This document shows positions 2,408 to 56,362 of a stretch of 64,000 nt of DNA, in pieces. Under the pieces are notes generated by a model, which saw nothing but the letters and a program-made list of their open reading frames with translations, did no database searches and was not told the DNA's origin. The position numbers and the translations under genes are program-made. How positions within the stretch are numbered: position 1 is the first letter of the stretch; each line of letters opens with the position of its first letter. This DNA comes from a virus: IMG/VR virus record IMGVR_UViG_3300033141_005269, positions 13,416 through 77,415 of that record; one strand, 5' to 3'.

Positions 2408-2722
2408 TTGGTGTGCAGAGTGGCAAGTAAAAAGACATCGAATAATGAAATATACCGTGTATTACTTGACCACAGCGATAGACTCGGAAGGATTGAAGGC
2501 GAAGTCACGAAGATCAATGAATTGAAAGAAACAATTGAAAAGAATTTTAAGGATTTGAAAAAAGATCTGGGGAACCTCGAAACTAAAGTCCAGGAGAACT
2601 CGAATGATATCATAAAGATTAAGCAGACCGCGAGAACGATAACAAAAGTTGGAGGAATCAGTGGCGGAATTATATCATTTGCTTATTTTGTCTTTCAACT
2701 GCTTGCTAGTATTGGTAAGTAA
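2408..2722 (+). CDS. Coiled-coil protein with C-terminal transmembrane helix
   Basis: Heptad-rich region followed by GGISGGIISFAYFVFQLL. Confidence 0.55.
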   Translation: MVCRVASKKTSNNEIYRVLLDHSDRLGRIEGEVTKINELKETIEKNFKDLKKDLGNLETKVQENSNDIIKIKQTARTITKVGGISGGIISFAYFVFQLLASIGK

Positions 2723-3370
2723 AACTTCTCGAATATGTTGCAATGCCTTTTTACCGAGACCCTTTATCGAAATGTTTTGCTGATTAACTGCCTCGAAGAA
2801 AGCTTCCGGTGAACCATATTCCGAAAGAATAACTTCTGATATCTTCGCGCCAATGCCCGGTAAACCTTGTAGTAAATATTTTTGCTTATCACACAAACTC
2901 ATGCTTTTAGCCGGACTGGTTCGAAGAGTGAATGGGTTTTTAATCCCGCCAGCTCGACGAGCAAGCGAGGCAAGAAAACTTACCGTCCATGAGCGAGAGG
3001 GTAGAACTATAATTGGAACCTTCCAACCATATAAAATACTCGAGATTGCACCGGTTATTGAATTGATATCGACTTTAATCCACTTACGTGGATATGCAAG
3101 CGAACCTTCAATTAGAATTACTGGACTTGCTTCTGTTTCCTTCATACGTTTAAGCTGATCAAAAATTCGATTTTGGAAAATTGAACTCATAAAATCGGTT
3201 GGAGTTTTTCGTTCAATTATGAAAGATGTCTTCTCATCACCCCCAAAAATTAGGAAGTCCCCAGTTGGAAGTTTCTGAATGTCCACTTGAAGTCCTTTCG
3301 AAGCGAGTTTATCGCGAAAGTATTTTTTATGATGCTCGCGAGAATCGATTATTATATCCAAACTAATCAC
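2675..3370 (-). CDS. ERCC4/XPF-family structure-specific nuclease with HhH motifs
   Basis: IIDSRE, GDF, IERKTPTDF, LIEG, and HhH LPGIGAK / IKGLGKK. Confidence 0.9.
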   Translation of the reverse strand: MISLDIIIDSREHHKKYFRDKLASKGLQVDIQKLPTGDFLIFGGDEKTSFIIERKTPTDFMSSIFQNRIFDQLKRMKETEASPVILIEGSLAYPRKWIKVDINSITGAISSILYGWKVPIIVLPSRSWTVSFLASLARRAGGIKNPFTLRTSPAKSMSLCDKQKYLLQGLPGIGAKISEVILSEYGSPEAFFEAVNQQNISIKGLGKKALQHIREVLLTNTSKQLKDKISK

Positions 3371-8043: not shown

Positions 8044-8898
8044 TTAAGTATTACTATCTAGAGATTTCGATGGTTTTAACAAAGAAATTGGAGTTTCAAG
8101 GTAAATTCGATACATGTTTCGCGGAACTGCAAAGTTATGCTCCCTAGCCTCGATAGTTAAATGCTTCGCGACAACTGGCATGGCTATTCGTTTATTGTCC
8201 CAATTATCCTCGCCAACTTCATCAAAAGCGTGCTGTAGAGCGCGAATTATGCGATCGTGAGGCATTTCTGGGAGCTGAACTTTCGGTGGCTTCTTAACTT
8301 TGGGGAGTTTTGGTAAATCAACTTTTTCTTTGAAGAAGACCTGATTTTTATAATCCTTTCCGACTACTCCTTCCCGTCTGTGTCGTCTGCACCACTTAAG
8401 CGCTTGTTCAATATGCTCGAAAAGATCATCTGTGGAAGCGGGAATAAATCTGTCTACAACTCGAACAATCGGTAAGCGATGATGAAAGGCTTTTTGATAA
8501 ATGATATTATATCCAAGAAAACGTTCTGTTTGACAGTCCCAAATATCGAATAATATCCAATGAATATGTTTGCGCTTGGGCTCGATCCTGGTAGGCGAAA
8601 TGCGCTTAAGTAACTCGCCGAATAGGATGTAATCGTTACCATAAATTTGCTCGTCGCGAAGAAGCTCAACTGCTTTCGAAAATTCAGGAGTTGATTTAAG
8701 GCGAGTTTGGATATCATTTGATGCTTGTTCTAGATTGCGGCTTGAGATCCTAACTACTCCGGAGTCATCAAGCCAGATTGAAACGTTTTCGCCGTCTCGT
8801 TTTTCAGTTAGATGAAGAAGCTGACCAATTAATTCGCGACCTTGATTTCGCAAACGGCGAATCGGTTCCAAATCATAATATTTTCTCCATCGAGTCAT
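8044..8898 (-). CDS. ATP-dependent RNA ligase (Rnl2/Rnl3-like nucleotidyltransferase)
   Basis: Motif I TEKRDGEN, SSRN, FGEL, FDI, REGVVGK, FFKEK; no DNA-ligase OB domain. Confidence 0.75.
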   Translation of the reverse strand: MTRWRKYYDLEPIRRLRNQGRELIGQLLHLTEKRDGENVSIWLDDSGVVRISSRNLEQASNDIQTRLKSTPEFSKAVELLRDEQIYGNDYILFGELLKRISPTRIEPKRKHIHWILFDIWDCQTERFLGYNIIYQKAFHHRLPIVRVVDRFIPASTDDLFEHIEQALKWCRRHRREGVVGKDYKNQVFFKEKVDLPKLPKVKKPPKVQLPEMPHDRIIRALQHAFDEVGEDNWDNKRIAMPVVAKHLTIEAREHNFAVPRNMYRIYLETPISLLKPSKSLDSNT

Positions 8899-9675: not shown

Positions 9676-9691
9676 CGTGTTAATTCGCCTC

Positions 9692-9789
9692 TTTAGCTGC
9701 TAACTCGAAGCAGATCCCGGGTTATCGTCCCGACGGCACGCCGAAGTCAGGACCATCATAGCTAGGCACGCGCAGCCTCGGGTTAGCAT
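9692..9789 (-). ncRNA. 98-nt intergenic BHB intron / putative small circular RNA
   Basis: Minus strand 5' CCU-UAGC-AG^A-UGCUAAC ... GUUAGCA-GCUA-AA^G-AGG: perfect 4-bp helix, two 3-nt bulges and flanking stems, in a GC-rich island. Confidence 0.7.
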
Positions 9790-10474
9790 CTGCTAAGGTC
9801 ATTTCACTATTGGATTCCTTTTGATGAAAAGATCAGCGCTCGCCTTTGTAAATTTTGCGATGTCCTCTGGTTCGCCTTCAATTTCCATATCTGCTTGCTT
9901 GAGTATAACTCGAATTTTCCCCAAATTAATACCTCCTATTTATTGTTGAAGAAAGCTTCTTTAACTTTCAAATCGTTTGCAACTTCTCGAATTAATTCCT
10001 CGTCTTTGGAATGGCAAAACATCCAACCGTTCCTGTATACCACCCATATTTTCCCCTCTTGTTTGACGTTAATCAACCAAGCCAACCTCCTTCGCACATT
10101 CATAATGTCTAAGCTTAACTCGACCATTTGCGAGACTAGAAGCTATTTTATCTCCAATATCGAGTTTTCCACCACAAGTGTAGCAAACAAGCTTTACTCC
10201 GCGAGTTATAAGCAACCTTTTGATCGGTTCATCAATTGTATAAACTTTCAATTCGTAACCTCCAAATTATTTTTCATGAATCGCTGGTCTCGCTCAGTGA
10301 ATATCCATGACAGCTTCTTGATCGCGAACAGAAGGAAATCGTTTATGTCAATGCTTGGGTGATCACTCCAAACTGTAATGATATGTTCCCTCTTTTCACG
10401 GCCAGCAATTGCCGAGCGCAAATAAACTTCGAACCGCTCTTTGTTATATATTATCTCGAACTCAAAAGTAGCCA

Positions 10475-17402: not shown

Positions 17403-18713
17403 TTAGCTAATCGTTCGCCCATCGAGTCCATTTGGCAACTTGACCTCCATAAGAGTCAAAATTGTCGGCGTGATGTCCAATATGCTAGCTATTTGTTCGC
17501 CAGTTTTCGAAGCCGGCGAAACGCAATAAAAACCATTCATATCATGATCTGAGTAATTAAACTGTTGATAACGCCGCGTACCAATTCGAACCCAATGAAC
17601 GAAATATCCAGCTTTAGAATTGGGAAGACAGAGGATATCTGGCATGTATTTCAGATAAGGGCCGGACCAAACTTCATCTTTCCTAAAAATACCTTCGAAA
17701 GGCGAAGCATTAGTTGCTGGATCGAGCTCTGAGTTGAGAATATCGAATAAGGCATCATGAACGCTAGAATTTGTAACCTTATTATGAAACCGATCATCAT
17801 TAATGACTATCGCGCCTTGACCAACTGACCAAGCATACGTTTGGGTGAAATCAATTGAATCCAAGTCGAGATAAACTGGATATGTGAAGAAAAGCTCCCT
17901 AGCTTTGGATTTAAGCTGAATGAAACCCTTTTCGAGAAGCATTGTATTTAAATTAAAAGCTCGAGAAACGGGGTGCATACCATGATCACTTGCTATAACA
18001 ACATATTCCGGCTTAGTCGCTTCAATTAATTCTCCTATCGCATCATCGATTAATTTATGAGCCCAGCGTAAAAGAGGTTCGCCTTGTTTAAGATGCATCA
18101 ACTGATGTTGTAGCCGATCGAGTATTAGAAATCCGATAAACGCGAAGTCATAATTATCTCCTCGAAGAAGCTTTAATGCAGTCGATTTAATCAGTTGAGT
18201 CCGATCAAACCAATAGCGTGCATAGTCTTGCAAGTTATTGAAATCGCGGATATTTTTTTCCCATGGTATAAAACCCCATTTCGCTAAATCACCTTTAACC
18301 ACTTCATCGCTTGCCCATTTATCACCTGTCGCGTCATAACTTGCAATTTGCACGCCATTGATTGGTTTAGCTGGGTAGGTCATCGGTAGATTAAAGACGA
18401 GGCATTTAAATCCTTCTCGAGATAGGATATCCCATACTCGATCGCCTACAAGCTTATCAGCCTTATCAAAGAACGTCATGCGGTAGTCTTGCCCGGTCGA
18501 ATCGAAGCAAAACGATCGCGATTTACCCGGATTTAGACCTTGAAACATCGCGGGAAAACCAATCGAGGTTGTTGGCGGTGGAACAGTGCGCAAAATACCG
18601 CTTAAACCTTTTGAGCGTAGTTGCCCCAAATTTGGCATATACCGTGAAAATTGTTGAAAAGCAGAAAAGCTCGCAGCGTCAAGCGCTATAGCTAAGACTT
18701 TCATATTGAACAC
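17403..18713 (-). CDS. Alkaline phosphatase superfamily protein (phosphodiesterase/nucleotide pyrophosphatase type)
   Basis: IALDA, PPTTS, LDRLQH, ASDHG, SDHDMNG, DITPTIL. Confidence 0.88.
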   Translation of the reverse strand: MFNMKVLAIALDAASFSAFQQFSRYMPNLGQLRSKGLSGILRTVPPPTTSIGFPAMFQGLNPGKSRSFCFDSTGQDYRMTFFDKADKLVGDRVWDILSREGFKCLVFNLPMTYPAKPINGVQIASYDATGDKWASDEVVKGDLAKWGFIPWEKNIRDFNNLQDYARYWFDRTQLIKSTALKLLRGDNYDFAFIGFLILDRLQHQLMHLKQGEPLLRWAHKLIDDAIGELIEATKPEYVVIASDHGMHPVSRAFNLNTMLLEKGFIQLKSKARELFFTYPVYLDLDSIDFTQTYAWSVGQGAIVINDDRFHNKVTNSSVHDALFDILNSELDPATNASPFEGIFRKDEVWSGPYLKYMPDILCLPNSKAGYFVHWVRIGTRRYQQFNYSDHDMNGFYCVSPASKTGEQIASILDITPTILTLMEVKLPNGLDGRTIS

Positions 18714-19271
18714 CTAGAACTCAAAAACATCTTCTGGTTTTACTTTAGGAAATCCGTGAGTTGTAATCGCGAATGCTGCGGCAGTATCAAGCTTGGCCAT
18801 ATCTGCTTGGCTAATCCATCTCCCATGTTTGCCTAATTTAGACATTATTTCCTTCGCCTCATCTAGGGTTATGTCATCTATGACTAAATAACCTTTCATT
18901 CGATATTTCCTCCAAAACTATGGACTTTTTCCTTCGGCTTGAAACAAGACTTCGAAAATTGCTTTGGCAACTTCGAGCCTAGTTCTTCTTTTCCGATTAG
19001 CTTTTATTTTAACCTCCTCCGTAAATAGCAATCCCGCCGACAGAGTCTATGACTTCGGGTTTTCGCTTAACCGCGGAAACAAATTCCTCGAAAGTGCTTC
19101 TTCTAAGCGGACAACTATAATCGCAGATTTCCCAAGCCAATGTTTCCCATTCGAGTTCCCCTGTTTTCGCCTTTGTATAAATAAATTTTAATGCCTCCTC
19201 ATAGCTTTCTGCATGGACGACAGCTACGCCGCAGGTATAATCGCACAAAACATTTTTCCAAACAAACATTT

Positions 19272-19746
19272 TCATTTTGCTAAGTCCTCTCCGGGTTCAC
19301 GGCTGCTCGAAGGCGCGGTATTTATTTGATTGCCGAGATAATTGCTGTCCCCTTCCAGCGCCCCGCATCTCCTTCCGAGCAATTGCCGACCCAGCGGACG
19401 CAATTTTTAAAGCCTTTTCAAGTTCAACCTCTATACCTTCCGCATAAACTCCAAGAATTTGAGCGTCCTTGAATTGCCTAAAGTGGGATAAAACCATCTC
19501 CAGATATCCCCGAAGTTTTTCAAGACGATTTTTACAATCCTCTAATTCATCAGCGTATTTAACATCATTTCTTGTTAAATCGGAAATATAATCTCTTAAT
19601 TCCTGGACTTCTTTCTGCGCATCCTCGAGTCGAACCCACTTCTGGTCCAACAGCGGATTATGCACTCCATCTACAGTTTTTGCCCATGCTTCTTTCCATA
19701 ACGCGTAAACTTCTTCGTAAGACTTCGCTTTGTTTTTCAAACTCAT
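19272..19746 (-). CDS. Coiled-coil hypothetical protein; predicted spliced form 19746-19383 + 19297-19272 (129 aa)
   Basis: Removing the BHB intron 19298-19382 gives ...SAGSAKPGEDLAK*, with TGA overlapping the next ATG (19275). Confidence 0.6.
19298..19382 (-). ncRNA. 85-nt BHB intron
   Basis: 5' CUGGGU-CGGC-AA^U-UGCUCGGA ... UUCGAGCA-GCCG-UG^A-ACCCGG; canonical hBHBh'. Confidence 0.8.
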
Positions 19747-21432
19747 CGAGAAACCTCCTTAGCTAATGCCTCGAAAAGTTCTTCATGCTTCGCGATATCT
19801 TTGCGCAACCAAGCCTCGAGAAACTTTTGCTGAAAGTGAATAAGCAAGCTTTTAATTCGGATCATCCAAATCAACCAGCTGATAATCATAACCGAGAATA
19901 GCCGTTTCGAGACCAGAAAGAAAGCAACCAAATCGATCGCGAAAATCAAAATGTTCTATCGTCCATCGCTTAGTGTCCGGGTTATAATTTGGAATGTAAG
20001 TTTGAGCAAGCCAGCTTATCGCGCCTTTTAAATACAATAATCTTTCGAGTATGGAAAGCCTGCGTTTAACAAATTTCAAATTAATCTTCCTCCAAGTGAT
20101 CCCATGGAAACTTCCAACCATGCCGTCGCTTTTCATGCATAAGCAAGCTATGAGCTGCCATGCCGAGTATGAATGAACAAATGCACGAAACAATGAAGTT
20201 CACAAAATCGATCACTGATTATTCCCCCAAAATGAATAGCGAATTATTCGCTTATATTTGCACTATCTGTTTTGAAAGCTTCCAGGAGTGCAGGAGACAT
20301 CCGGACGAAATATCGATTCGGTTTATGATCTTCAAGGTGTACTCGAGAACCATGCTTGCGCGCGAAATTACGAATTTCAGTATATTCCGACTTCGTCATC
20401 CGAACTACTACTTCTCCGCGTTTATATTTATAAACTTCCAACTTACAACCTCCAAAATAAGGGAAAGATTTTTCGTATATAAACTATTCTTCCCTAAGTA
20501 TTACTTTCAAATTACCTGACAACGGAAGCTTATTTAGTCTCATATAATCACTATTAAGAATAGTTGCTTCAATCGAAAGTCTAGTCTCCATTGGATCGAA
20601 TGAAACACTGAGTTCGCGAACAGTTGCCTTAAGATAGATTTTCTTTCCTTTCAGTGCATCAGCTAGCTCCTCAATTTCAATTTCGTCCAATTATTGCACT
20701 TCCCCTTCATCTGGATTAAGTCCAAGCTCCATATCAATTAGAAGAGCGATTTCGAAGGTTAACTTCATCAACCGTCTAAAATCATCCCAAGTCCACAGCT
20801 TGTTAAGATGCCCGTGGCCAATACCTATTCCCAAATCCTTAAGCTCATTAACTTTTCTTTCGAGTTCTGAGCCTTTTAAACGCTCTGGAACTTCAATTTC
20901 CAAAAGATGATCAGATGCTCTGCTTGCCCAGCTTTCGATTAGCCTTGAAGACTCCCTCGAATTCGAAAGCGATGTTTTGAGAACTGTCGGGTCCATAAAA
21001 TGCATTGCAAACTTGACCAAGCAAATAACTAGCCCGCGCCCATATTCTGACGGTGGAATATTTTTAATTGCATCTGCAAGTCGTTTAGCTTCGAGTGACA
21101 AGAATAAACCTCCAAAACTTTGCGAAGGCGAAGTTGTTGATAGGCTTCAGAAGCCGGTAGTTTGTAAGGTTTGCGGAAATCGAGTAAGACTAAAAATAAA
21201 GTAATGAAGATTAGAAGAACTGGCAATATTAATCCCAGCTTTATTCAATTTTTCGCCAGGAAAGCCAAGAATTGAACATCGCGACTATTTTTTCATCTTC
21301 CCAAATTTTAAGTCTAGACTCCTCATCAACCGTGACCTTACTTATGTTTTCGAAAATTTCTTTGAATAATCTGTCTAGAGCACCCTCGACAAATACAGCA
21401 ACTTTCAACCGAAAACACCTCCAAAACGGAGT

Positions 21433-38174: not shown

Positions 38175-38622
38175 CGGGACAAGGCGGGAAAGGGCTTTCC
38201 CTTACCGAGCCAGCTTTTCAGCTGACCGCTCCACGCAGGGAGGAACTCGCTTCGAGTCTGCCCTACAAGGCTTTTCACTGTTCGCCTTATGCGATGCCCT
38301 TCGAGCTTCATATCTCGAGGAAAGCTTGGAGCTGGGTGCCTCACAACCCGAGCACTTTAGCTCGAGCTGCTTCGTCTTACTGGAGGTGTTCGACAACTCT
38401 CTCCTTTCAGTTATGGAGAAGAGCCGGCACTCGCCCGAGCGGTCACCCGCTACTCTCGCCTTGTTGCCCGCCCTCGAGGCCAGGTCGGCTCTATGCCTCT
38501 GATTCGCTTGGCATAAGGTGGAGGACGCCTTCCAACTCGCAGTCGGAGCTGGAGTTGCCGCCTGCACTCCCGAGGGTTCGGCGATGAGCTTCTCCTTTCA
38601 CTGCAGTCCCGCCTCATTCCCA
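38175..38622 (-). ncRNA. GC-rich multi-hairpin structured RNA domain (~450 nt) of unknown class
   Basis: Terminal pairing GGGAAUGAGGCGGGA / UCCCGCCUUGUCCC. Many hairpins, e.g. UCCAGCUC/GAGUUGGA, GCAGCUCGAGC/GCUCGGGUUGU, GGUCAGCU-GAAA-AGCUGGCU. G-U pairs favour the minus strand. Confidence 0.65.
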
Positions 38623-38715
38623 CTCAAAAATTCGAGAAGGACGATTTACGAGCTGAACCTTACACCCTCGCAAACTCCTTCTCATAGTTAATCTTTTTGG
38701 CTCAGAGCACGGGAT
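38601..38715 (-). ncRNA. 115-nt rod-shaped BHB intron
   Basis: CUUUC-GCAG-AA^A-UCCCG ... CGGGA-CUGC-AG^U-GAAAG; internal stems GAGAAGGA/UCCUUCUC and GUUUGCGAG/CUCGUAAAU. Confidence 0.7.
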
Positions 38716-38731
38716 TTCTGCGAAAGCTCTT

Positions 38732-39290: not shown

Positions 39291-39320
39291 TTACAGAAGA
39301 GCTTTAACTCCCCGTCCAGC

Positions 39321-39604
39321 CTCGTGGCATATAAAAAATATGGGCTTTTAAAGAATCGGTTGGAGCCTAACGGCTTTCCAATATTCTGAATGCTCAAAAG
39401 CTTCTTTGTAAAGTTCGTAGTCTTCTCTGCGAATTTTCCTGATAAACGCTTGTTTTTCGATAATTTGAAAATCTTCTGTTTTTTCGAACAAGACTTTATG
39501 AGAATTCCTGAAATGCTCGATTAGCTGTTGCTCAATCCGTTCAAGTGTCAGCCCTATAAATCTCTGGTTACACTTTCGACATCTCGCCCAATATGGCATT
39601 TTAG
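39321..39604 (-). other. BHL-like-bounded 284-nt segment containing a complete ORF
   Basis: CCGUCCAG-CGUG-AG^C ... CACG-AG^G-CUGGACGG: 8-bp outer stem and perfect 4-bp helix; inner stem weak. Confidence 0.55.
39348..39599 (-). CDS. Small C2H2-like zinc-binding protein
   Basis: CRKC...EHFRNSH. Confidence 0.65.
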   Translation of the reverse strand: MPYWARCRKCNQRFIGLTLERIEQQLIEHFRNSHKVLFEKTEDFQIIEKQAFIRKIRREDYELYKEAFEHSEYWKAVRLQPIL

Positions 39605-39892
39605 CTCACGCTGGACGGTCTGGAGAAGCTCGTTGTTAGCGTTCTCACTTGTCCGTTCCCCGCCCTCCCCTCGCCCGCTACGCTTTATCCTTAAGGCGAG
39701 ATTCGTTACGCCTTAAGATTCAGCGCTCGTTTCTACACCGTCCGCCCGCATTACGACGCACGATAAACCATAACGTGCGTCCGTCGGTACGGTGTATCCC
39801 GTCGTGCGTCGTGTCGCCACGAGCGCACTTAACGGTTTGTTGGTTTTTGCACATACGTGCAATAGGCACGGTGTGCTTATCCAAACCGTTTG
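39605..39892 (-). ncRNA. Structured non-coding leader
   Basis: Nested inverted repeats AACGGUUUG/CAAACCGUU, GCGCUCGU/ACGAGCGC, UACACCGU/ACGGUGUA, CUUAAGGCG/CGCCUUAAG; TATA-like elements at about 39905-39930. Confidence 0.55.
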
Positions 39893-47168: not shown

Positions 47169-49394
47169 ATGGATTTACCAGTTCGTCCTGGCATAATGCT
47201 AGTGAAGCCACATGCCGAGTTGCTTTGGAAAGGCGAGAAGAAGATCATAATCAAGGCGAAACGATTCGATAAATATAATGACACACGGATTTACTGGTTT
47301 GATGATGATTACGTTTATGGTATGTTAATACTTGGAAAACCACGCGGACCCATCACTCGAGAAGAGGCAAAGGCACTATCTTCAGAATCAAGAATTACTG
47401 ATGAAGAATTCGAGAAATGGTGGCCAGACCAGAAAGAATTCTGGGTGTGGAGACCAAGAATTTTAGTTCGCTTCAAGGAGCCGATAAAACATCCAAAGTG
47501 GGAAGGCATACAAACCTTCAAGCGTCAAATTGCGCTCAGTGAAAAGCAAGAATACGGTCCTCCATATGCTCCGGTGCCCAGATCGGGAAAGAAGCTGGGT
47601 GAGCTGATAAAACTCAAGGATGTTTTGGACGGCGGTTTCAAGCCCATAGTGTTGCAAGACTTGCTTGTTAATTTGACGGGAGGACTGGTTAATACTGGCG
47701 AGACGGAAGGCGATGTGGATATACCTTATCGAGCTCCTTCACCTCAACCAATAACTTCTGAAATGGAAAAATTATCCGATTTATTCGAACAATTACCAGA
47801 CAGTGAGCTTAAAGGACAGATTAAAGCGGTTGGAGAAAATCTTTTCAGCAAAATTATCGAATATTTAGACTTCTGGGACAACGCGATAAGATTTCGTCTT
47901 TATAGGTACTTAGAAGGTACACGACCCAAATTGAAAGGGAGACTTCATATCTTTCCAGATTTGCGTGGACCGATAACAAGTTATATTCCGTTATATAGCC
48001 TAATGCTAGTGCCCATAAAGCCGCTAAAACGAGTGGAGATGAGTGAGATTGATTTAGCCAGAGATGATATCGCTGACAAGATATTCGAACTGATCAAGAC
48101 TGGAAAATGGGAGAAAATTAAAGCTGATGAAAGAGTCGAGATGATGAAGAAGCAAAAAGAAATTACTCCTCCTTTACCAATCGTGCCAACTAAAACATCA
48201 AAGGCTGGATATCGAGAACTCGAGTTATTCGAAAAACGCTCGGTTGCTAAGCTTGCCTCAGAATGGCTAAAAGAACATCCTGGAGCCAAAATTTATACGG
48301 AAGTTAAATTCGATGGGATGAGATTAATACTTGTTAAGGATAAGGACAAGGCTTGGATGTGGACAGAGAGCGGGGAGAATGTAGCTGATGTTTTGCCGAA
48401 CTTAAGGAAGGACTTACTGTCACTGAATGCGGAAACAGTCTATCTGGATAGTGAAGTCGTGCCATATGATGAAGGAGGACGAGCACTCGGTCGAAGAGCA
48501 GCAATGGGAGCTATGGGGAAAGGAGAAATTGATGATAGTCACTGGATAGCTCATGTTTTTGACTGTATTTACCTAAATGGATCACAGCTTTGGAAGAAAC
48601 CATATGAAGAAAGAAGGAAAATTTTGCGTGGCATCGAATTGCCGCGAGCTGATGTACCTAAAAGTTTCAAGTTCCATTTGCAAGAAAATATACCAAGGAT
48701 CGCGACAAGTCCTGAAGAAGTCATTAAGTTCACAAATGAGGTTTCAGCAATACCATACAGCGAAGGCGCTATGTACAAACTGAGCGATTCGATATATCCA
48801 ATTGGAAAGAGGACGCCGAGCTGGGCGAAACTCAAAAAGTTTGCTGATGTAGACGTGCTTGTAGTTGCTAAGTTCGCGAAGACCTATAGAACTGGTCCGC
48901 AGAAAGGGAAACCGATACCAGGTCAATGGATGCTTGCTGGTGCTGTTGGTCCAGTTGATCCGAAGGATTTGCCGAAAAACGCGAAAGTTTGGAAACCCAA
49001 TGAATTAACTCATGACGGCGTGAAGAAGAATAAGCAAGTTTTCGTGAAATGGAACGGAAAGATTTATTCTCTGCTCGGGTTAACTTTCGCGACCGCGGAG
49101 AAAATAAAGCCTGGTGAAATAGTTCGGGTAACGGTACGTTTGATACGAAAGATAAGTCCGGTTGAGTACCACTGGTTGATACCGAGGGTATTAGAGAAAA
49201 GACCAGAAAAGAAGGAACCAGATCCGCTGAGTGTTGTAAGTGCAATTGCGAAGAAAACACAGTATAAAATCGAACGCGAGAAAAAGATGAGTGAAGAAGA
49301 GATTTGGGAGCTATACGAGGGATTAAACGATTATTTGGCGAGTTTAGAACTTAATGAGTTAAACGAAAAGATACCGGAGTTTGACGTCGAATGA
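47169..49394 (+). CDS. Multidomain ASCH/PUA-like + nucleotidyltransferase-like + ATP-dependent DNA ligase
   Basis: PHAELLWKGEK (ASCH-like); TGGLVNTGETEGDVDI; ligase EVKFDGMR, DSEV, FDCIYLNG, EGAMYK, WAKLK, then OB domain. Confidence 0.85.
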   Translation: MDLPVRPGIMLVKPHAELLWKGEKKIIIKAKRFDKYNDTRIYWFDDDYVYGMLILGKPRGPITREEAKALSSESRITDEEFEKWWPDQKEFWVWRPRILVRFKEPIKHPKWEGIQTFKRQIALSEKQEYGPPYAPVPRSGKKLGELIKLKDVLDGGFKPIVLQDLLVNLTGGLVNTGETEGDVDIPYRAPSPQPITSEMEKLSDLFEQLPDSELKGQIKAVGENLFSKIIEYLDFWDNAIRFRLYRYLEGTRPKLKGRLHIFPDLRGPITSYIPLYSLMLVPIKPLKRVEMSEIDLARDDIADKIFELIKTGKWEKIKADERVEMMKKQKEITPPLPIVPTKTSKAGYRELELFEKRSVAKLASEWLKEHPGAKIYTEVKFDGMRLILVKDKDKAWMWTESGENVADVLPNLRKDLLSLNAETVYLDSEVVPYDEGGRALGRRAAMGAMGKGEIDDSHWIAHVFDCIYLNGSQLWKKPYEERRKILRGIELPRADVPKSFKFHLQENIPRIATSPEEVIKFTNEVSAIPYSEGAMYKLSDSIYPIGKRTPSWAKLKKFADVDVLVVAKFAKTYRTGPQKGKPIPGQWMLAGAVGPVDPKDLPKNAKVWKPNELTHDGVKKNKQVFVKWNGKIYSLLGLTFATAEKIKPGEIVRVTVRLIRKISPVEYHWLIPRVLEKRPEKKEPDPLSVVSAIAKKTQYKIEREKKMSEEEIWELYEGLNDYLASLELNELNEKIPEFDVE

Positions 49395-55155: not shown

Positions 55156-55542
55156 ATGACAAGAATAGAAGTTGGAGAAGGAAATGTATGGTCATTTGAA
55201 GCTGGCGAAGATATAACCAGCGGTGTCGCCGTGACGATGTCTGGCGACGGAACCGTTGCGAAATGCCACTACGGAGAAAGGGCGCTTGGAGTTAGCTTGG
55301 TGCCGGCAAGCGAAGGCGACCAGGTCGCAGTTGCGCTTGAAGGCGTCGTGGACGTGCTCGTTACTGGAACTAATGCGGACGCTGGAGTACCGGTCGTTGT
55401 ATCAAACGGTGCCGCTTTTGGTGGGGTAATTTACCCAACTGTCAGCGGAACGGATGAAATACTCGAGCAAGATTTAAGACTTGGAATACCCTTAGAAGAT
55501 ATAACTGCTGGATCAACTGGAAAGATAAGATTGACATTGTAG
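55156..55542 (+). CDS. Capsid cement/decoration protein (DUF2190-like)
   Basis: AGEDITSG, ALGV, GDQVAV..EGVV, LGIPLED; lies just upstream of the capsid gene. Confidence 0.75.
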   Translation: MTRIEVGEGNVWSFEAGEDITSGVAVTMSGDGTVAKCHYGERALGVSLVPASEGDQVAVALEGVVDVLVTGTNADAGVPVVVSNGAAFGGVIYPTVSGTDEILEQDLRLGIPLEDITAGSTGKIRLTL

Positions 55543-55546
55543 AGGT

Positions 55547-56362
55547 GTGAATGAAATGACCCTTACATCAGCAGAAGCGGCATTAATTGCGGAAGTTATT
55601 TACGATGAGATAGTTGAGACTAAAGAGGCGGAAGCAGTCGGACGCCAGATACTTCCTGTTGTGAAGATGGATTCTGGCGACTCTGTGAAAATCGTGAAAG
55701 AAGGATCATGGCCCGCTGCAGTTGAGGTCGGAGAATCAGCTGAAGTTCCAATACTTCAACCAGACTACACCGAGACAACTGCTACATACAAGAAGATCGG
55801 TTATAGAACACAGATAACTCATGAAATGGTTGCAGACTCACGCTGGGACCTTGTGCGAAGACAAGCCAGAAAAGCTGGCGAGCAAATTGCTCTTAAAGAG
55901 ACTTTGGATATAATCGAGGAACTAAAGGCGAACAAGGGAATTACTTTCCAGATAACCGGAGCTTGGGGCGGAGCGAACGCTGACGAGATCGGCGATATAA
56001 GCGAAATGATCGGAAAAGTTCGAGCTGCTAATTATCTTCCGGATATACTGGTTTGCAACCCGCTTGACTACGGCAAACTCGCTGGACTTGATGAATTCGT
56101 TCACAAGGAGAAAGGCGGAGACATTTCCAAATACGACGTCGGAACTATCCTCGGTTTGAAAGTTATTCCAACTCCGCAGATAAGCGAAGGCCACGTCCTT
56201 ATTCTGGATTCGGACCAGGCTGGAGCTTTGTTCCTTAGGGAAGATTTGCGGAGTGAGGATTACGTCGAGGAAGTAAGGGATCTGCAAGGACAAGTCTTCT
56301 TCGAAAGGTATGTGCCCGCTGTACTAGCACCTTCCGCTATATGCTTCGCGTCGACGTACTAA
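55547..56362 (+). CDS. Major capsid protein (HK97 fold)
   Basis: EVGESAEVP, YKKIG...ITHEMVADS, LVCNP, GTILGLKVI. Confidence 0.88.
   Translation: MNEMTLTSAEAALIAEVIYDEIVETKEAEAVGRQILPVVKMDSGDSVKIVKEGSWPAAVEVGESAEVPILQPDYTETTATYKKIGYRTQITHEMVADSRWDLVRRQARKAGEQIALKETLDIIEELKANKGITFQITGAWGGANADEIGDISEMIGKVRAANYLPDILVCNPLDYGKLAGLDEFVHKEKGGDISKYDVGTILGLKVIPTPQISEGHVLILDSDQAGALFLREDLRSEDYVEEVRDLQGQVFFERYVPAVLAPSAICFASTY

Follow-up and report, generated by a model that had tools for sequence, protein, structure and literature searches.

An 85-nt element at the boundary of two genes of a tailed virus is probably a true BHB mini-intron, which would be excised by EndA with religation of the exons by RtcB, releasing an 85-nt circle, exchanging a C-terminal tail of 28 residues for one of 8 residues and creating an ATGA overlap with the next gene. 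We infer from the sequence the cutting and ligation of this element (19382..19298) in vivo, as well as any function that it may have. The element lies in a window of 64,000 nt, taken from an IMG/VR virus record of 77,415 bp (bases 13416-77415) that has direct terminal repeats. Positions are those of the window.

Structure of the element and the two readings of the gene boundary

The element overlaps the end of an ORF for a 149-aa protein and precedes a gene for an 88-aa protein. The features of the locus are as follows.

19297..19746, minus strand: unspliced ORF of 149 aa, small coiled-coil protein (ORF list and homologues)
19272..19297, minus strand: exon 2 when spliced, 8 codons, of which the first includes A19383, followed by TGA at 19274-19272
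19009..19275, minus strand: downstream gene, 88 aa (ORF list and phrog_34232 match)
19286..19292, minus strand: GGAGAGG, a weak Shine-Dalgarno-like element of the 88-aa gene when compared with the TTTTGGAGG sites of the neighbours
19291..19394, minus strand: complete hBHBh' motif (sequence reading and ViennaRNA fold)
19394-19389 / 19296-19291, minus strand: outer stem CUGGGU / ACCCGG, 6 bp including one G-U
19388-19385 / 19303-19300, minus strand: central helix CGGC / GCCG, 4 bp
19384-19382, minus strand: 5' bulge AAU, 3 nt
19299-19297, minus strand: 3' bulge UGA, 3 nt
19381-19374 / 19311-19304, minus strand: inner stem UGCUCGGA / UUCGAGCA, 8 bp including one G-U
19382..19298, minus strand: putative BHB intron, 85 nt, both cuts being placed behind the second base of the bulge

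The motif agrees with the definition of a BHB, in that a helix of exactly 4 bp lies between two opposite-strand 3-nt bulges, AAU and UGA. Helices flank the BHB of 19394..19291 on both sides, which is the strict hBHBh' form. A canonical BHB is the recognition determinant of EndA, and the strict hBHBh' form is a substrate of all EndA types. The preliminary description of this locus had presented the element as a textbook hBHBh' with CGGC/GCCG, bulges AAU and UGA, and stems of 6 and 8 bp, and both our reading of the sequence and ViennaRNA bear this out. In excerpts of 151 and 110 nt, the hBHBh' was the minimum-energy as well as the centroid structure, and it kept the lowest energy when the temperature was raised from 37 to 85 °C. 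By the convention used for cbf5 introns, EndA cleaves between the second and third bulge bases (PMC2738675). The same cut places the intron at 19382..19298; the length of 85 nt and the splice arithmetic proposed earlier were reproduced, and the resulting frame was confirmed.

The putative intron is predicted to form a GC-rich rod with a 25-nt AU-rich internal loop, and its GC content is 56% whereas that of exon 1 is 40%. No similar sequence or paralogous copy of 19382..19298 was found elsewhere in the genome, and thus there is no sign of intron transposition. The 8-nt word TCGGCAAT, which is located at the 5' splice site (19382-19389, minus strand), occurs again in the AU-rich loop (19329-19336, minus strand). 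In the same register, the second copy is followed by two codons and then TAA, and a protein read through there would end after Ile-Lys. This repeat may have been left behind by the process that gave rise to the insert or may be due to chance, the probability of such an 8-mer repeat within 100 nt being roughly estimated at 1 in 13. The unpaired intron loop also contains a AAATAAATA stretch (19320-19328, minus strand), some 25 nt before the 3' splice site. Were this candidate promoter element an archaeal TATA box, transcription of the 88-aa gene would begin close to the 3' splice site, and the resulting transcripts would not contain the 5' half of the BHB and would not be spliced.

The upstream gene begins at ATG 19746, which is preceded by the ribosome-binding site AAGGAGG, and its product carries the family signature MSLxxKAK...KWVRLEDAQ. 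Exon 1 comprises the residues up to about 118 of the 149-aa ORF, with 19383 as its last base. As had been pointed out before, the stop codon of the unspliced ORF (19746..19297) is the UGA of the 3' bulge itself. Since 85 is not a multiple of three, splicing would shift the frame: when the 85 nt are removed, the exon-1 frame gains 8 codons and stops at TGA 19274-19272, which overlaps ATG 19275-19273. This part of the preliminary description also stands. A symmetric cut anywhere within the bulges leads to the same frame and the same stop. The spliced tail is 8 residues and the unspliced tail 28 residues long, so that the spliced protein would be the shorter one. The 8 codons of exon 2 have a codon-usage score of 0.46 as compared with a genome in-frame mean of 0.25, and the 28 codons of the unspliced tail rank at percentile 16 among in-frame windows and at percentile 65 among off-frame windows. 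Codon usage therefore points slightly toward non-coding for the unspliced tail, the likelihood ratio being no more than about 1.6.

The start of the downstream gene at ATG 19275 is consistent with the match of phrog_34232 to residues 1-29 of the 88-aa protein (E 4e-6), and the identical 88-aa protein was found on 4 contigs. The ATGA overlap at this ATG exists only in the spliced form. It had been described as the usual arrangement in this genome, a claim that does not hold: such 4-nt overlaps occur at only 11 of the 115 same-strand junctions, gaps of 6-30 nt occur at 23 of them, and the neighbouring genes are separated by gaps of 18-24 nt with a strong TTTTGGAGG ribosome-binding site. The ATGA overlap is neither rare nor usual in the genome. 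Nor can it serve as independent support for the splice positions, as had been argued, because the outcome is tidy in whichever of the three frames exon 2 is read: one frame stops 5 nt short of the ATG, one yields the ATGA overlap and one leads to a fusion in frame. Such an overlap would be expected by coincidence in about 1 of 3 cases.

The course of events that we favour would be as follows. The polycistronic viral pre-mRNA would fold into the hBHBh' motif, the splicing endonuclease EndA of the host would cut inside both 3-nt bulges, and the host ligase RtcB would join the exons and circularise the 85-nt intron. The spliced mRNA would then give a protein with the 8-residue tail instead of the 28-residue tail, with its stop codon overlapping the next start codon. 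Since the unspliced mRNA would also be translatable, both forms may be made.

BHB splicing elsewhere in the virus and its host

The case for BHB splicing in this virus comes mainly from loci other than the 85-nt element. The genome of 77 kb was searched on both strands for introns of up to 400 nt by a scanner that requires the 3-4-3 geometry plus contiguous flanking pairs and scores G-C as 3, A-U as 2 and G-U as 1. Split genes were recognised by alignment with homologues. The relevant features are as follows.

32824-32477, 31871-31617, 31013-30936, 30092-29994 and 29971-29561, minus strand: five pieces of the ATPase gene (alignment with P0010)
29205-29696, minus strand: peptidase part 1, DUF2201_N profile positions 13-93
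28455-29180, minus strand: LAGLIDADG ORF between the two peptidase parts
27332-28501, minus strand: peptidase part 2, DUF2201_N profile positions 94-261
39299-39631, minus strand: strongest BHB of the genome, score 51, all Watson-Crick, 314-nt intron
9688-9798, minus strand: canonical intergenic BHB, score 35, all Watson-Crick, 98-nt intron, in a GC island

An intact ATPase homologue (P0010, 389 aa) aligns collinearly to the five pieces of this AAA+ ATPase in the window. A 22-nt insert (29994..29973) falls exactly between PVPR and TW of the uninterrupted homologue and has a canonical BHB core consisting of GCCG, the bulge AGA, a 6-bp hairpin, CGGC and the bulge AUA. With its length of 22 nt, which is not divisible by three, this insert has to be removed at the EndA cut positions before the ATPase can be made. 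For the three large ATPase inserts, which carry LAGLIDADG-type ORFs, the strict scanner found no canonical BHB. A DUF2201_N metallopeptidase is likewise split, at profile position 93|94. No strictly canonical BHB could be drawn at the peptidase junction, and as the strict scanner missed the LAGLIDADG-bearing introns, the genes concerned are confirmed as split only. Scans with relatives of the ATPase retrieved only relatives of 27% identity, none of which was accompanied by the 149-aa gene family.

These alignments show that the virus depends on BHB splicing at other loci. Since the virus needs EndA/RtcB splicing elsewhere, a strong BHB in a viral transcript is a likely substrate. The 22-nt micro-intron of the ATPase resembles the 85-nt element in its 3-4-3 core and in a central helix made of G and C only. 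The ATPase and peptidase introns share with it the genome, the gene-sense strand and the implied need for the EndA and RtcB of the host. They differ in that they break conserved domains and that their removal is demanded by homology, whereas removal of the 85-nt element is not: splicing there restores nothing conserved, and the unspliced 149-aa ORF is intact.

The strongest BHB (39631..39299), whose score of 51 lies above those in all of the 40 genome shuffles described below, encloses a whole 83-aa ORF (39599..39348) in a GC-rich non-coding region and precedes ATG 39260. A weaker BHB is present at 38726..38595 on the minus strand. The intergenic BHB at 9798..9688 is located 12 nt upstream of ATG 9675 and heads a block of genes, among them one for an RNA ligase (8044-8898, PF09414). 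ARAGORN predicted no tRNAs, with or without its intron mode. Rfam gave no match at gathering scores, and with E values up to 1 it gave one weak match in 37.9-40.2 kb, far below the gathering score of the family.

The tailed virus has genes for a large terminase, a portal protein and an HK97-type capsid protein. Among 50,697 phage records, relatives of the portal protein were found in haloarchaeal tailed viruses only, and the best relatives of the terminase include those of Thermus phages, Methanobacterium virus PhiF1 and Halogranum virus HGTV-1. Pieces of the locus were present in only three public runs, all of them DNA metagenomes from hydrothermal vents, with small shares in each; no RNA run was listed for the locus. 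As a host clue, the DegT aminotransferase gave mixed bacterial and archaeal matches, all of at most 46% identity. Neither EndA nor RtcB is encoded by the virus, so that the enzymes of the host are implied, and the host would be an archaeon with EndA and RtcB, as is implied indirectly. An archaeal host is suggested by the obligatory 22-nt BHB insert of the ATPase, the split peptidase, and the affinities of the portal protein and terminase. In the reading that we favour, it would be a thermophilic archaeon.

Other genes of the window include a type I phosphodiesterase / nucleotide pyrophosphatase gene (17403-18713, minus strand), an ERCC4 (XPF-type) nuclease with HhH (2675-3370, minus strand), an ATP-dependent DNA ligase of 741 aa (47169-49394, plus strand), and a large sugar-modification set consisting of DegT, an epimerase, an NTP transferase and three glycosyltransferases.

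Chance, homologues and variant DNA in the light of alternative readings

It is possible, albeit rather unlikely, that the element remains unspliced, being a GC-rich hairpin that is due to chance, that serves as a protein-binding site or that stabilises the mRNA as a 3' structure, with the 149-aa protein as the sole product. The unspliced reading offers a complete ORF with an ordinary stop and, to the 88-aa gene, a typical spacer of 21 nt that contains the Shine-Dalgarno-like GGAGAGG and follows the same pattern as those of the neighbours. It also accords with the unremarkable folding energy, which is ordinary for the composition (z = -1.1 to -1.2). The non-random feature of 19394..19291 is its 3-4-3 geometry, not its stability. 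With a score of 46, the motif is the second best in the 77-kb genome by the BHB scan. This score was reached anywhere in 2 of 40 dinucleotide-shuffled whole genomes, each of which thus has an equally good BHB somewhere; motifs scoring at least 46 number two in the real genome versus 0.05 expected from the mean of the shuffles. Against the absence of splicing, none of 3000 local shuffles of the 124-nt GC-rich stretch reached 46, the maximum being 39, and viral transcripts would meet EndA, since other genes of the virus need it.

The GC content of the element was also considered in relation to the rest of the genome. The BHB element is among five GC islands (at least 58.7% GC per 104 nt), the others being the BHB at 9798..9688, the two halves of a cassette at 38.2-39.8 kb, and an ORF at 55.2-55.4 kb. 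Three of these four other islands contain BHB motifs or structured RNA, and the remaining one (55.2-55.4 kb) is plain protein-coding sequence, which means that a high GC content is not enough to establish an RNA element. The ORF in this island (55157-55546, plus strand), which is rich in Gly, Ala and Val, is located directly upstream of the major capsid gene, and its product is possibly a head decoration or scaffold protein. BHB-like matches at 55216..55422 and 55409..55583 are probably compositional.

Homologues were compared for both proteins. Pfam and PHROGs assigned no function to the 149-aa and 88-aa proteins, and the 149-aa protein had no family match at all in them. The identical 149-aa protein was found on 3 contigs, which is in favour of the unspliced reading. 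Its family consists of small, viral coiled-coil proteins with 9 matches among 1.8 billion representatives. Five relatives (P0002-P0006) end 0-9 residues past a shared ALK motif, and the closest relative, P0018 (78% identical), extends about 50 residues past it; the tail of the window protein past this motif would be 15 residues long when spliced and 34 residues long when unspliced. The homologues diverge directly after the ALK motif, and neither of the window tails resembles that of any relative. Judging from the sequence of P0018, the 149-aa family swaps C-terminal modules. The C-terminal extension of P0018, which is encoded on an ENA contig of 637 bp and comprises about 50 aa, is acidic and has no counterpart in the window. 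The short C-termini of the five relatives were considered as support for the spliced form and were dropped because P0018 has its 50-aa extension.

DNA was read for five distant relatives, and none of them has an insert at the intron site. These insert-free relatives fit a lineage-specific gain of the element and prove nothing on splicing. A metagenome scan retrieved relatives of only 35-38% identity, none with the insert, and no close relative was retrieved from IMG/VR, whether the query was one of the two proteins, the family alignment or an exact 21-nt pattern of the 5' splice region.

Variant contigs from the three vent metagenomes, which are short and have a depth of 2-4x, were compared with the window over 18700-20200. 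One contig of 271 nt (X2) covers 19174-19397. It has five substitutions at 19205-19240, in the downstream gene, three of which are at third codon positions; none are listed in 19241-19397 versus 5 in the adjacent 67 nt of coding sequence. The stems of the BHB carry no substitutions, so that this sole variant offers no covariation. X2 has a single extra base behind 19360, which falls in an unpaired loop of 3 nt and leaves all pairs intact. The insertion would shift any reading frame that crosses the intron, which argues against a coding constraint on the 85 nt and hence against the unspliced reading. Past 19397, three bases outside the outer stem, X2 is unrelated to the window, and in the 30 of these 43 nt that are visible, a stop 8 codons ahead of the motif interrupts the exon-1 frame of the window. 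A second contig of 185 nt (X1) matches 19412-19380 and then diverges 2-3 bases past the 5' splice site; the sequence after the divergence is not the predicted exon 2. The mosaic breakpoints at 19380 (X1) and 19397 (X2) bracket the 5' half of the BHB, the former being no more than 3 nt away from the 5' splice site and the latter no more than 3 nt away from the outer end of the BHB. This arrangement suggests that the BHB and the start of the downstream gene may behave as a module, which is a lead and not a proof.

The same arrangement brings up the alternative that the BHB is a leader or intergenic processing element of the 88-aa gene, its overlap with the end of the upstream ORF being accidental in this strain. 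Excision, or cleavage without ligation of the exons, would then set the 5' leader of the 88-aa gene or its translation, and rRNA processing stems are the comparison case. We regard this as unlikely. X2 fits it in keeping the whole BHB and the downstream start while being unrelated upstream of 19397, but the upstream sequence in question amounts to only 43 nt, of which 30 are visible. The location of other BHBs just before genes (9798..9688 before ATG 9675, and 39631..39299 before ATG 39260) points in the same direction, and the 5'-UTR intron of HVO_1309 provides a precedent (PMC7714728). GGAGAGG is partly buried in the outer stem of the BHB and the next helix (GGAC / GUCC), and this partial sequestration would suit a role in the translation of the 88-aa gene; the outer stem can, however, still form a hairpin over the same Shine-Dalgarno bases after splicing, so that no unmasking is obvious.

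If the element is spliced as a mini-intron, the exchange of the tail and the ATGA overlap are more likely a tolerated by-product at a permissive gene end and gene boundary than a regulated switch. In such a switch, the efficiency of EndA and RtcB, varying for example with temperature or infection stage, would set the C-terminal isoform and the ATGA coupling of the next gene; we consider this quite improbable. Splicing-controlled isoforms, which the preliminary description had proposed, find no support in the homologues, whose C-termini vary toward both shorter and longer forms. Translating ribosomes could keep the 5' half of the BHB from folding.

Finally, it is extremely unlikely that the change of frame reflects an indel from sequencing or assembly, or that ribosomes undergo a programmed frameshift into the second frame, which has no stop between 19403 and 19272: this frame comprises 43 open codons and leads to the same ATGA, but about 1 of 8 such frames is expected to be open at 56% GC (an estimate, not a computed value), no slippery heptamer is seen in the sequence, the identical 149-aa product is present on 3 independent contigs, and the BHB geometry would be left unexplained.

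Relation to known systems and significance

In the searchable literature, BHB introns in mRNA are limited to cbf5 and one haloarchaeal 5' UTR, that of HVO_1309 (PMC7714728). For viral genes, the same literature yielded nothing beyond a proposal for a rudivirus, in which 12-bp "introns" were suggested, as cited in PMC2738675; their splicing was never shown.

The intron of the cbf5 pre-mRNA of Crenarchaeota (Watanabe 2002; Yokobori 2009, PMC2738675) resembles the 85-nt element in being short, free of ORFs and located in a protein-coding transcript, as well as in its cleavage by EndA between the second and third bulge bases. Like the viral element, it is sporadic among relatives and is misread by gene callers. 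The two differ in that cbf5 is a cellular gene whose intron breaks a catalytic codon, so that splicing is obligatory, and whose splicing has been demonstrated by cDNA, whereas the element described here is viral, covers the last codons of its gene, leaves both forms translatable and would restore nothing conserved by its predicted splicing. Moreover, the cbf5 introns are 16-44 nt long and their BHBs are often relaxed, in contrast to the 85 nt and strictly canonical BHB of the viral element.

The 5'-UTR intron of HVO_1309 in Haloferax volcanii (Schwarz et al. 2020, PMC7714728) is likewise a BHB outside tRNA and rRNA and close to a start codon. It is excised as a circle, and its removal affects expression rather than restoring a protein. 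This intron is located wholly in the leader, is conserved among haloarchaea, and was verified by circRNA-seq and an in-vitro EndA assay. The 85-nt element, on the other hand, overlaps the end of an upstream ORF, belongs to a virus and is a predicted intron.

The logic of the 85-nt element also resembles that of HAC1 and XBP1, in which enzymatic splicing shifts the frame and provides a new C-terminus. HAC1 and XBP1 are spliced by IRE1 together with tRNA ligase or RtcB, and their short introns are not a multiple of three in length (26 nt in XBP1). As the frame shifts, the protein receives a different C-terminus, and in these eukaryotic cases such splicing is a proven regulated stress switch. The RNA signal for IRE1 is a pair of twin stem-loops with 7-nt loops, and to our knowledge no IRE1 is expected in archaea. 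Since HAC1 and XBP1 depend on IRE1 and twin stem-loops, whereas the viral element has a BHB of the EndA type, the latter is not a member of this class and the relation is one of analogy only. If the element were nevertheless a regulated switch, it would be an archaeal-virus counterpart of the frame-switch splicing of XBP1 and HAC1.

Gene callers are trapped by such an arrangement, in that they annotate the 149-aa read-through form. If the 85-nt element is spliced, splicing would alter the reading frame at a gene boundary rather than repair a gene, and such a change of frame at a boundary may be raw material for regulated isoforms. A virus with several mRNAs that contain BHB introns would make the tRNA-splicing enzymes of the host a routine part of gene expression in some archaeal viruses.
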